Shown here: positions 54,389 through 57,962 of the stretch, piece by piece | Position numbering within the stretch: the stretch's first letter is position 1 | Layout: each line of letters starts with the position of its first letter | Virus record (IMG/VR): IMGVR_UViG_3300014835_000095 | Direction: 5' to 3' (one strand) | Origin: a virus | Length of the DNA stretch: 64,000 bases | The notes under the pieces: generated by a model | Told to the model about the DNA's origin: nothing | Database searches by the model: none | Seen by the model: only the letters and a program-made list of their open reading frames with translations | Made by a program: the position numbers and the translations under genes

Positions 54389-55654
54389 ATGTTATCATTC
54401 AAACAATTTTTAAAAGAAGTATATCTAGTTGAGGCTACAGCAAAACATTTTCCGTTTTTGGATCCAACAAATCAACACCATCAAGATCTTATTGCTGCTT
54501 ATAATAGCGGCCATTCTTCTAATGACCCAGCGGTGCCAAGACATCCAGGTCAGATTAAATCTATAGAACAGCTACAAACAGCAGTTAAGCCACACCTGGA
54601 TAAGTTTCTTCAAAAAAGACAGGAAGGTGTTGATGATAAAACGGCATTTGAGTCTAGTGAAGCAAAACTAATTCATCATAATCCTGACACTGGAGTTAAG
54701 GTCTATCAGGTACATAGTCAAGCTGGATCATGTGCTGCAGGGGCTTCTAGTACATGGTGTACAGGAAAACGCAAAGCTGCTACGGATATGGTAAAATATT
54801 ATGATGAAGGAGGGAATAACTCCTTTATATTGCACTTTCCAAAAGAGTCCAAAAAGCATTTAAGAACTATTGGTGCTTATGGTAAATTTAACGGTAGAGA
54901 TAATTTTCAAGATGCTGAAAACCATACTGTTCCAGAACATGAATGGAGCAGATTAAGATCAGAACATGGATTAGATAATATTAAACATTTACAAGGTGTT
55001 GTTAGAGGAATTCCATTATCAGATGATAATAAAGAAAAACATAAAAAGGAATTATCAGATAAAATAAAAAGTGGCAATATTAAATCCGAAGATATCAGCC
55101 ATGCTATAAATAATAATTATTTAACAGATGTACATAAGATGATGATAGTAAAATCTAATGTTAGTAATATAGTTTTACATAGGATTGCCCGCAATACATC
55201 AGACCCAGAAGTACATAAGGCAATAATAGCAAAGCCTACTATTGATGATGGTATTTTGGATGTTATTGCCCGCAATACATCAGACCCAGAAGTACATAAG
55301 GCAATAATTTCTCATCCTGATGCTAGCAAGTATGTTTTAGAAAAAGTTGCTGAAAATACTGAGGATCCAGAAGTACATAAAGCAATAATTTCTCATCCTG
55401 ATGTTAGCAAGTATGTTTTAGAAATAGTTGCTAAAAAGACTGAGGATCCAGAAGTACATAAGGCAATAATTTCTCATCCTGATGCTAGCAAGTATGTTTT
55501 AGAAAAAGTTGCCAGAAAAACTAATGACCCAGAAGTACATAAGGCAATAATTTCTCATCCTGATGCTGATGGCGATGTTTTAGAAAAAGTTGCCAGAAAA
55601 ACTAATGACCCAGAAGTAAAAAGGTTAGCAGCAGAGAAAATGGAAAAAATATAA
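54389..55654 (+). CDS. Putative internal virion protein with LRV/HEAT-like repeats (paralog 3)
   Basis: Start reassigned to MLSFKQFLKEVYLVE; TATAAATA at 54356-54363; about 7 DPEVHKAIISHP-type repeats. Confidence 0.82.
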   Translation: MLSFKQFLKEVYLVEATAKHFPFLDPTNQHHQDLIAAYNSGHSSNDPAVPRHPGQIKSIEQLQTAVKPHLDKFLQKRQEGVDDKTAFESSEAKLIHHNPDTGVKVYQVHSQAGSCAAGASSTWCTGKRKAATDMVKYYDEGGNNSFILHFPKESKKHLRTIGAYGKFNGRDNFQDAENHTVPEHEWSRLRSEHGLDNIKHLQGVVRGIPLSDDNKEKHKKELSDKIKSGNIKSEDISHAINNNYLTDVHKMMIVKSNVSNIVLHRIARNTSDPEVHKAIIAKPTIDDGILDVIARNTSDPEVHKAIISHPDASKYVLEKVAENTEDPEVHKAIISHPDVSKYVLEIVAKKTEDPEVHKAIISHPDASKYVLEKVARKTNDPEVHKAIISHPDADGDVLEKVARKTNDPEVKRLAAEKMEKI

Positions 55655-55665
55655 AATATTGGTAT

Positions 55666-55695
55666 ATGGGGGGTTTAATCATCCAAACCCCCCAT
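55666..55695. terminator. Bidirectional hairpin terminator
   Basis: ATGGGGGGTTT-loop-AAACCCCCCAT. Confidence 0.75.
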
Positions 55696-55712
55696 AAGGA
55701 AATTTAGAATGG

Positions 55713-55786
55713 TGGCAGCCTCTAGTAGTTACGCTCTACTCCGTTCAGATTCAAATTCTGACATGCTACTAATACATCAAGAGGCA
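55713..55786 (-). ncRNA. Atypical tRNA-like cloverleaf, anticodon UUG (Gln-like)
   Basis: Hand-folded 74-nt cloverleaf with all four stems, G73-CCA, non-canonical D and T loops; TATAAATA at 55809-55816. Confidence 0.7.
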
Positions 55787-55851
55787 AAACACTTTCTTTT
55801 ACTATAAGTATTTATATAAATTGGGTCTAAAAAGCAGTAATTATTCCAATA

Positions 55852-56849
55852 TTAAGTGGTTGCACTTATATTAACAGTTTTTTGGTAAATAACTGTAATG
55901 TCGGAATTCTTTTTAGATGATAATGTTTGATTTGATTGGCGTTTACTACTATTTACTGAAAAGGTATTAACCTTATCAAATCTCAATTCAGTCTGATACT
56001 GTAATACATCATCATTCATATCATTTTTACCCACGTTCCAGCAAGATACTCCATTTTCAGTTAATAATATATTGCTTTTCACTATAATATCCTTTAAGAA
56101 ATAATCAATCCATTCTCTATAAGAAGAATGTGTTGATGTGGATTGAGAATTTTCATTACAATATATTTCAAGGTCAAAATATGGGGGACTTGTTAATACT
56201 AAATCCACCTTAGGTAAATTATACTTATCCATATTCATTGCATCATCTTGTATGATAGTTATTCTACCCTCAATGTCTAAGAATGATGCTAATTGTTTAA
56301 GATTATTATACGTCACAGAATTAGGTTCAAATCCTATATAATGAGCTTTTGCTGCAATAGCATCCTACCACCCCAACCGCAGCATGGGTCTAATACTATT
56401 TTGGGTTGATAAAAATCGCAGATAGATTTTGTCATTTGAGGTCTATACATTGTATTTTTAGTGAGACCGCAACAAAAGAATACTCCGAGCTTTAGTTCTG
56501 AAAGATAAGGTGTAGAATGACTTTTCCATCTTAATATCTTTATCAGATTATCTTTAGCCCAAAGATTATTGAAACTTTGTCCTTTAGTATTAGTTATATC
56601 ATAGAAATTGTGGAAAAAATGTTCACATAATTTCATACCTATTCTAGATGTAGAATTGATATTGGTTATCGCATTCTTCCACCTATTCAATTTGATCCAG
56701 TCATCTATCAATTGAGCATTGGTATATTCTGGATATATTGAAACTTTAGAAATAGCTTCGGCTAATTCTTCAATAATAGATTCAAAAAGTTCATCTGACA
56801 AATTTCTGGTTGAATGTCTAACATTTAAGTAATGATCAAGATTAACCAT
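55852..56849 (-). pseudogene. Frameshifted amino-methyltransferase (two ORFs)
   Basis: Motif I LDPCCGWGGRM and motif IV TSPPY in different frames; shifted frame continues IAAKAHYIGFEPN at about 56358. Confidence 0.8.
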
Positions 56850-57416: not shown

Positions 57417-57726
57417 ATATAAGAATATACATTATAATCTAATATGAGATAAAAGTCAATAGCTATTTTTTTTGTTATTTGGGCGGTTGATTTGGAGAAG
57501 AACACTTGGCAAATTGTGAACTTATGCCACATTAGATATGTAAGAAGAATTCAGGGTATCTAAATCAAAGAGGTTACTCGGTGAAATTTAAATTCTTATA
57601 AATAGATCAATGAAAGAAGAAACTATTTTAGAAGGGCAACATCATTTGTAATGAGAACAAATACAAAATCATTCAAAGATATCGATGTGATGTAGATGAT
57701 GAAAGTTTAATTGATTTATAAAACAT

Positions 57727-57801: not shown

Positions 57802-57864
57802 AATATTAGTGCTATCTACGATTATGAATCCATAACCTTAACGACTTCAAGCATTGCCGTTTAT

Positions 57865-57938
57865 TGGAGTCGTTAATAAGAATCAAACTTCTATCTAGAG
57901 ATTACAAGTCAATTGTATTATCATTATACTATATCGAC
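57865..57938 (-). pseudogene. Degenerate tRNA-Thr(TGT)
   Basis: Correct spacing, D-stem and CTTGTAA loop, CCA; broken anticodon stem and T-loop TTTGATT. Confidence 0.65.
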
Positions 57939-57962
57939 ATAATGCTTTTATTTATATCAAAT

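Follow-up and report, generated by a model that had tools for sequence, protein, structure and literature searches.

A phage tRNA-Gln(UUG) gene with an alternative elbow in an uncultured T4-like freshwater myovirus

Introduction

Does an RNA that folds as a tRNA-Gln(UUG), and that lacks the bases on which the tRNA elbow normally depends, still serve translation, or does it have another function? This question is raised by a short gene in a 64-kb stretch of viral DNA (64,000 nt; hereafter the window), which is part of an uncultured freshwater T4-like myovirus of 31% G+C whose DNA was found in freshwater and lake metagenome runs only. The window encodes an SbcC/gp46-like gene with an intein and a CobT-like 'peptidase' gene with 30–33% identity to its cyanomyovirus counterparts. 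The gene in question lies in a 197-nt gap between convergent genes. A first-pass annotation of the window had described it as a late-expressed, non-canonical tRNA-Gln-like RNA with intact stems and replaced loops, and had suggested a decoy for anticodon nucleases, an aminoacyl donor or a packaged RNA.

The G18·Psi55 and T54·A58 contacts are near-universal in tRNAs, and they are the basis of gene finders and of three 'universal' modifications. The enzymes that introduce Psi55, m5U54 and Gm18 need U55, U54 and G18, respectively. The G18·Psi55 contact and the anatomy of the T-loop have been reviewed (PMC7912444).

Results

An intact tRNA-Gln(UUG) cloverleaf

The minus strand from 55786 to 55710 reads exactly as the first-pass annotation gave it, and the features of the locus are collected in Table 1. 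Standard pairs occupy 20 of 21 stem positions, the exception being a U1·U72 mismatch, in an acceptor stem of 7 bp, a D-stem of 4 bp (one G·U), an anticodon stem of 5 bp and a T-stem of 5 bp. As had been proposed, this tRNA-Gln(UUG)-type RNA thus has intact stems, unlike its visibly decayed tRNA-Thr-like neighbour. The variable loop is ACGG (4 nt), G73 precedes the CCA and the base at position -1 is U. The tRNA-conserved U8, A14, A21, U33, G53:C61, C56 and R57 are all present, both in the sequence and in the Rfam alignment, and G19 is retained in a D-loop that has no GG. The canonical elbow bases G18, U54, U55 and A58 are absent, and A18, A54, G55 and U58 are found instead. The MFE structure is the cloverleaf, for the gene alone and within the predicted precursor.

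A weak 1-72 pair, G73, U35, G36 and A37 are the usual marks of a bacterial tRNA-Gln. In agreement, U34-U35-G36, A37, an unpaired U1·U72 and G73 are all present in the window gene. The identity elements recognised by E. coli GlnRS include G10, G2-C71 and G3-C70. The window gene has G2-C71, with A10-U25 and C3-G70 at the other two places, and the members of the family described below vary there too.

Table 1. Features of the tRNA-Gln locus and A54-type tRNAs of related phages
Feature	Position	Strand	Basis or detail
Whole element: 71-nt cloverleaf and CCACCA	55710-55786	-	read from sequence
tRNA-Gln(UUG) body, 71 nt, positions 1-73	55716-55786	-	ARAGORN, Rfam RF00005, family alignment
D-loop ATTAGTA	55767-55773	-	A at 55770 replaces G18; G19 = 55769
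Anticodon loop ATTTGAA (A32, U33, A37, A38)	55750-55756	-	UUG = 55752-55754
T-loop AGCGTAA (A54, G55, C56, G57, U58)	55729-55735	-	sequence; G55 = 55734
First encoded CCA	55713-55715	-	sequence
Second CCA	55710-55712	-	sequence
Leader, 22 nt, octamer to tRNA position 1	55787-55808	-	fold of 55650-55803
Octamer TATAAATA, matches T4-type late-promoter consensus	55809-55816	-	consensus match
13-bp G+C-rich hairpin between convergent genes	55665-55696	.	fold
Sigma-70-like promoter TTGACT-17-TATAAT, 11/12	57431-57459	-	promoter scan
A54-type tRNAs of relatives, contig G001	L172 1417-2306; L175 133-207
A54-type tRNA of relative, contig L001	L001 8809-8884

Detection of the gene and the role of chance

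ARAGORN, one of the checks suggested at the outset, called a tRNA-Gln(ttg) at 55713-55786. The Infernal-type check gave a divided answer: the Rfam tRNA model RF00005 matched with 33.6 bits (E = 6e-6; gathering cut-off 29 bits) when 121 nt were searched with relaxed filters, and it reported nothing here on the whole window or on a 4-kb stretch because of its speed filters. Dinucleotide-shuffled versions of the 64-kb window (150 of them, 9.6 Mb in all) yielded no ARAGORN call. These results confirmed that the cloverleaf is real and beyond chance. A cloverleaf arising by accident in AT-rich intergenic DNA would be in keeping with the folding energy of the gene, which is unexceptional compared with shuffles (z = -0.26). 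However, the Rfam score above the cut-off, the empty shuffles and the ungapped fit to a family of 67 members, down to an identical T-loop (see below), already refute an accident, and its probability is practically nil.

Homologues were not found with direct searches. Megablast and blastn of the region against INPHARED returned no homologue, and scans of IMG/VR with exact or loop-only patterns of the window gene gave only chance matches that lacked a cloverleaf. The loop pattern, run against 185,579 prokaryote genomes, gave 11 matches, all by chance (8–12 of 21 pairs). The loop-only pattern missed the relatives of the gene because it demanded A32 and GCCA, which are absent in most of them.

A family of phage tRNA-Gln genes with A18 and G55

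Ninety-five stretches of IMG/VR matched a fixed-spacing pattern that specified T8, A14, A18-G19, A21, TTTGA, G53, W54, G55, C56, R57, W58, C61 and G73 only. Among the first 80 loci, 69 had at least 19 of 21 cloverleaf pairs, and the remainder had 5–11, which is the level expected by chance. Over all fetched loci, this gave 67 distinct phage tRNA-Gln(UUG) sequences with A18/G55 (IMG/VR contigs L225-L319). The commonest T-loop in the family, AGCGTAA (21/67), is identical to that of the window gene. The commonest D-loop is AATAGTA (29/67), and AAAAGTA and similar loops also occur, all with A-G in the same place. Positions 54/58 were A/U in 47 members and U/A in the other 20; the two non-complementary combinations that W/W also admits, A/A and U/U, did not occur. 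The 1-72 pair is weak or mismatched in every one of the 67 (A-U, U-A, G·U or no pair). A CCA is encoded by 45 of the 67 genes, CCACCA by none, and A32 is found in four.

The window gene therefore shares with this family the A18-G19, the G55-C56-R57, complementary bases at 54/58 and an intact cloverleaf, and differs from it in a D-loop of ATTAGTA rather than AATAGTA, in A32 together with A38 and in the CCACCA end. A gap-free alignment could be made of the window gene and 52 family members (53 sequences). Within it, 98.2% of the pair cells were standard and 21 of 22 pairs changed on both sides; the choice of sequences with at least 19 pairs raises the percentage paired, not the compensatory counts. 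The 54:58 pair was A-U in 38 sequences and U-A in 15, with nothing else observed. None of 500 shuffles matched the pairing or covariation values of the alignment, and slid registers were also far below them. Hence, covariation in relatives, proposed earlier as a check, revealed abundant compensatory changes in all stems, and the lack of such changes in homologues that would have refuted the original description was not observed.

Positions 18 and 55 are coupled across other phage tRNAs

Coupling between positions 18 and 55 was assessed in 372 non-Gln tRNAs that ARAGORN called in the same loci; since the pattern had not selected these tRNAs, the test is free of circularity. A D-loop GG occurred with U55 in 302 of them and with G55 in three, and a D-loop AG (no GG) occurred with G55 in 43 and with U55 in nine (odds ratio 481; Fisher P = 7e-43). 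At least 15 amino-acid specificities are represented among the G55 tRNAs, which make up, on average, 32% of the tRNAs of a locus. In four loci (L225-L319), a G55-type and a U55-type tRNA-Gln are both present, and the two elbow types coexist within single arrays.

As 18/55 and 54/58 co-vary, the 'replaced loops' form a coherent alternative elbow that is used by phage tRNA sets. Judged from the sequences, this is an elbow in which a predicted A18·G55 replaces G18·Psi55 and a predicted A54-U58 replaces T54-A58, with G19:C56 and R57 kept. The first-pass annotation had read the loops as lost or replaced and had seen in them a hint of a non-ribosomal role, which does not fit with the presence of the same elbow in at least 67 tRNA-Gln and 43 neighbouring tRNAs. 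Instead, its spread over at least 15 specificities in ordinary arrays fits translational use.

The same data bear on the proposals that the RNA acts outside the ribosome as an aminoacyl donor for a transferase, that it is packaged in virions, or that its tRNA-like shape is a signal for 3′ processing of the upstream mRNA. The gene does come last in an operon, with a strong hairpin shortly after it, and it has a superficial likeness to the staphylococcal non-proteinogenic tRNA-Gly. However, the elbow recurs in at least 15 specificities within ordinary phage arrays, the neighbouring gene families include no aminoacyl-transferase partner, and the tRNA-Gln identity marks and a real anticodon loop have been kept. 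We therefore regard all of these roles as very improbable. Nothing was found to support the decoy, aminoacyl-donor or packaged-RNA ideas, and the family context makes them less likely.

The nearest relatives of the phage have a canonical tRNA-Gln

Searches with the CobT-like peptidase gave 160 loci from IMG/VR and JGI metagenomes, and the best relative of this core protein had 45% amino-acid identity in IMG/VR and 40% in JGI metagenomes. In the nearest contig (L001), the same peptidase gene is closely preceded by a group of tRNA genes (Asn, Gly, Gln, Ala), of which the tRNA-Gln(UUG) is canonical (59 bits), with a length and layout identical to those of the window gene. A complete 160.9-kb relative (G001) encodes 29 tRNAs, and its tRNA-Gln(UUG) has the U1·U72 mismatch, G73 and CCA of the window gene. 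The U1·U72 mismatch is therefore a clade trait of tRNA-Gln. Among 67 tRNAs in the clade loci, only the window tRNA-Gln combines the absence of GG with G55, and A32·A38 is found in one of the 67. The window gene has its alternative elbow in a T4-like freshwater myovirus, and the phages closest to it have a canonical tRNA-Gln.

Compared with the canonical tRNA-Gln(UUG) of E. coli, phage T4, L001 and G001, the window gene has the same 71 nt plus CCA, the same 7-nt D-loop and 4-nt variable loop, and the same UUG, U33, A37, weak or mismatched 1-72 pair, G73 and encoded CCA. It differs in G18 to A, U54 to A, U55 to G, A58 to U and A32, it is without the G10 and G3-C70 of the E. coli set, and it has a second CCA.

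Six tRNAs of G001 and L001 (His, Ile, Met, Glu, Asp and Gly) have A54 and U58 (A58 in Met), with U55 and GG kept (Table 1). Therefore, the 54/58 swap is independent of the 18/55 swap.

Further RNA genes were observed in related DNA. The 29-tRNA array of G001 includes, at about 21.3–22.1 kb (L198), an ARAGORN tRNA with anticodon CUA that was labelled Pyl and is possibly an amber-suppressor tRNA. Another related phage contig (L007, 17360-17725) has a permuted tmRNA, called by ARAGORN, with the tag peptide ANDSNYNYALAA. A 198-nt contig of run X3, aligned at 55746-55779, carries a tRNA that matches positions 8-41 of the window tRNA-Gln at 30 of 34 nt. It comes from a tightly packed tRNA cluster and combines a canonical T-arm (T-loop TTCGAAC) with an acceptor stem unlike that of the window gene; it may be a near cousin with the canonical elbow or a partner in recombination.

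Constraint on the gene in a decaying neighbourhood

Six other contigs with the tRNA-Gln gene are 100% identical and hence uninformative on constraint. A strain with roughly 4–6% divergence is represented by contigs from runs X5, X6 and X8 (two studies), which cover 55615-56137. Its 18 listed substitutions, together with indels, all fall at 55640-55684 and 55838-56090, and none is listed at 55685-55837; all 7 differences of the X8 contig are accounted for, and X5 and X6 each have one unlisted difference near the contig end. The changes affect the hairpin and the terminal part of the gene next to it, or they lie upstream of the octamer and in a methyltransferase (MTase) gene fragment. The hairpin itself has several substitutions and indels. 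No change is listed in the leader, where the unlisted X6 difference may fall (55793-55806). The chance that 18 changes would miss the 153-nt block is (370/523)^18, or about 0.002, and the chance that they would miss the 77-nt tRNA alone is (446/523)^18, or about 0.06. These counts, from one diverged lineage, lend modest support to purifying selection on the tRNA-Gln, which agrees with its intact stems and contrasts with its decaying neighbours.

One of these neighbours is a 154-aa ORF (55852-56316, minus strand) that corresponds to the C-terminal two-thirds of an N6/N4 DNA methyltransferase. Its C-terminus is complete and it lacks the N-terminal SAM-binding motif found in homologues of 200–260 aa. 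The ORF is broken further into 73 and 76 aa in two contigs (L086, 3768-4231; L087, 1615-2078), and the diverged strain has a 27-nt deletion or a 9-nt insertion inside the fragment, which is probably a pseudogene. No relative of the fragment protein was found in IMG/VR, and contigs with homologues of 48–58% had no RNA gap downstream. We considered whether the tRNA shape might be what decay has left of the 3′ end of this MTase gene, and rejected this, as the 154-aa product lacks the N-terminus and has a complete C-terminus.

The second neighbour is a tRNA-Thr(UGU)-like gene (57868-57938, minus strand) that has canonical loops, five non-standard stem pairs and a CCA end. It scored 43.9 bits with Rfam at 27% G+C, and ARAGORN was silent; it has the look of a tRNA in decay or of one that has drifted strongly towards AT. 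Between this gene and a tRNA-Met(CAU) is a 63-nt spacer (57802-57867, minus strand) with arm-like inverted repeats, which may be the remnant of a third tRNA. The ATA codon is used at 31 per 1000 codons in the window, and the CAU tRNA might be a lysidine tRNA-Ile2 rather than tRNA-Met.

Such surroundings raise the possibility that the tRNA-Gln is itself an early pseudogene, recently made non-functional and carried in a decaying accessory region. In line with this, its Rfam score is low and default filters missed it, its A32·A38, A10 and duplicated CCA are atypical even for the family, and decay is evident in both the tRNA-Thr-like gene and the MTase fragment that is split in L086 and L087. Yet all 20 stem pairs besides 1-72 are intact, the loop 'defects' are the norm of the family, the diverged strain has no listed substitution in the gene despite variable flanks, and a promoter-like octamer and the CCA have been retained. 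On balance, a pseudogene is distinctly improbable.

Predicted expression, processing and decoding

Late expression from an own promoter and terminator was part of the original description, and this part is a reasonable guess rather than a finding: the octamer and the hairpin are present as stated, but the octamer is not enriched and the hairpin has no U-tract. Indeed, the window has 21 copies of TATAAATA compared with 22 expected, and 11 of the 21 fall in non-coding DNA, which makes up 16% of the window. A second copy (57949-57956) lies 10 nt upstream of the tRNA-Thr-like gene. Taken alone, the octamer is weak evidence for a putative promoter. The hairpin was not called in a terminator scan because it is without an adjacent U-run, and beyond it lies the end of a plus-strand LRV-repeat gene; from its predicted fold, it is possibly a bidirectional terminator or a stabiliser of RNA 3′ ends. 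On the other side of the tRNA-Gln, the upstream minus-strand operon consists of genes for a 188-aa protein, a 171-aa protein and the MTase fragment, and we infer read-through into the tRNA-Gln from its sigma-70-like promoter.

Our preferred reading is that the window gene is a phage tRNA-Gln(UUG) of an alternative-elbow class that works in translation, and we consider this likely. An elbow shared with many phage tRNAs points to an RNA that probably functions in translation rather than as a decoy. Its transcription would come from read-through of the upstream operon and possibly also from its own TATAAATA. RNase P would then cut off the 22-nt leader, and exonucleases would trim the 3′ trailer back to an encoded CCA. 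Charging would follow the glutamine route of the host, guided by the weak 1-72 pair, G73, U35, G36 and A37, and on the ribosome the tRNA would read CAA and perhaps CAG. In the 66 ORFs of the window, Gln is encoded by 427 CAA and 129 CAG codons (77% CAA). Counting against this reading are A10 for G10, C3-G70 for G3-C70, the rare A32·A38 and the decay of the neighbourhood.

The second CCA, which could disturb 3′ maturation, sets the gene apart from the other two tRNAs of the window, each of which has a single CCA. In the predicted fold of 55650-55803, part of the leader pairs with the trailer, including the second CCA. Specifically, in the predicted precursor (55787-55803 with 55701-55712, minus strand), the leader segments GAAA and GUG pair with the trailer segments CAC (of CCACCA) and UUCU. 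The CCACCA may thus be trailer sequence that pairs with the leader, and in this folding model the pairing extends the acceptor helix, which may explain why the second CCA is retained. The second CCA is probably incidental, because a CCA at one given place has a chance of about 1% at the base composition of the window.

Discussion

The window gene is a clear member of a sizeable natural class of phage tRNAs that swap both near-universal elbow contacts for a co-varying alternative. We found no paper that describes either an A18/G55 or an A54/U58 tRNA elbow, and the class appears to be an undescribed form of tRNA.

Departures from conserved loop bases are known in other tRNAs. The staphylococcal non-proteinogenic tRNA-Gly departs from the D-loop GG and from T-Psi-C, and it forms a small host-specific set that serves the Fem transferases. 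The window gene is alike in its departure from GG and T-Psi-C; in contrast, the phage elbow spans at least 15 specificities in phage tRNA arrays and is not known to have a transferase partner. A CCACCA end is known from tagging, in which the CCA-adding enzyme adds a second CCA to unstable tRNAs that have a 5′ GG and a destabilised acceptor stem. The window gene has the same 3′ CCACCA, but as part of its DNA sequence, and its tRNA starts with UG instead of GG. The T-loop of eukaryotic initiator tRNA-Met, with A54-A58, is a textbook exception at position 54 (PMC7912444). It resembles the window gene in that a purine at 54 replaces the 'universal' U54. However, that exception is specific to the initiator and to eukaryotes and keeps A58, U55 and G18, whereas the window gene swaps both 54/58 and 18/55.

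A further comparison is with phage tRNAs that evade defence (PMC10264068, PMC11464382, PMC11555353), in which the fold is likewise retained although conserved loop bases differ from those of the host. In those cases, the changes are in the anticodon loop and the nucleases are identified; in the window gene, the changes are in the elbow and no defence system is implicated. Such tRNAs suggest a reading in which the window tRNA works, and its altered elbow (and maybe A32 and the extra CCA) is adapted against host factors that recognise or cleave canonical tRNAs, such as modification enzymes or nucleases directed at the T-loop, elbow or tail. The tRNA would then be of use chiefly because it resists or titrates a defence that targets tRNAs, and less for codon supply. 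This reading overlaps with the preferred one, and the difference is in what is selected. Consistent with adaptation against host factors, A18, A54 and G55 mean that the window tRNA cannot carry Gm18, m5U54 or Psi55. The elbow variant is also a minority in the arrays, and four loci have both Gln types, as would be expected of a special-purpose back-up. Moreover, published cases of phage tRNA escape or neutralisation provide precedents: loop changes let phage tRNAs escape anticodon nucleases (PMC10264068), a T5 tRNA neutralises PARIS (PMC11464382) and phage tRNAs act against retron effectors (PMC11555353). A nuclease that cuts the CCA tails of tRNAs, Cas12a3, also exists (PMC12851939).

Several points weigh on the other side. 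The published escape cases concern anticodon loops, not elbows, the window shows no link between the tRNA-Gln and a defence or counter-defence system, and the CCACCA belongs to the window gene alone and is no family trait (0/67). In addition, we know of no nuclease against tRNA-Gln or the elbow in the host of this phage. Selection chiefly for defence is therefore unlikely. A more specific form of the idea, which we hold to be quite unlikely, is that A18·G55 and A54-U58 make a deliberate 'stealth' corner that hides or shields the tRNA from host enzymes and immune nucleases that read or cleave the Gm18/T54/Psi55 elbow, while the spare CCA buffers against tail-cutters. Such a corner would keep the L-shape and ribosome function. 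If this were true, phage tRNA counter-defence would extend from the anticodon loop to the elbow and the tail. The elbow may have been selected as a way round host enzymes or nucleases, or it may be neutral.

For this locus, the most likely conclusion is an ordinary codon-supply tRNA and no new kind of RNA. In a small sample, the class to which it belongs already counts at least 67 distinct tRNA-Gln genes of phages, along with dozens of phage tRNAs of other specificities. Since default Rfam filters missed the window gene, phage tRNA repertoires may be under-counted. With the class, nature supplies material for testing which features of the elbow are needed by RNase P, the CCA-adding enzyme, EF-Tu and the ribosome. 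It also suggests a hypothesis that can be tested, namely that a changed elbow helps phage tRNAs to avoid host enzymes.
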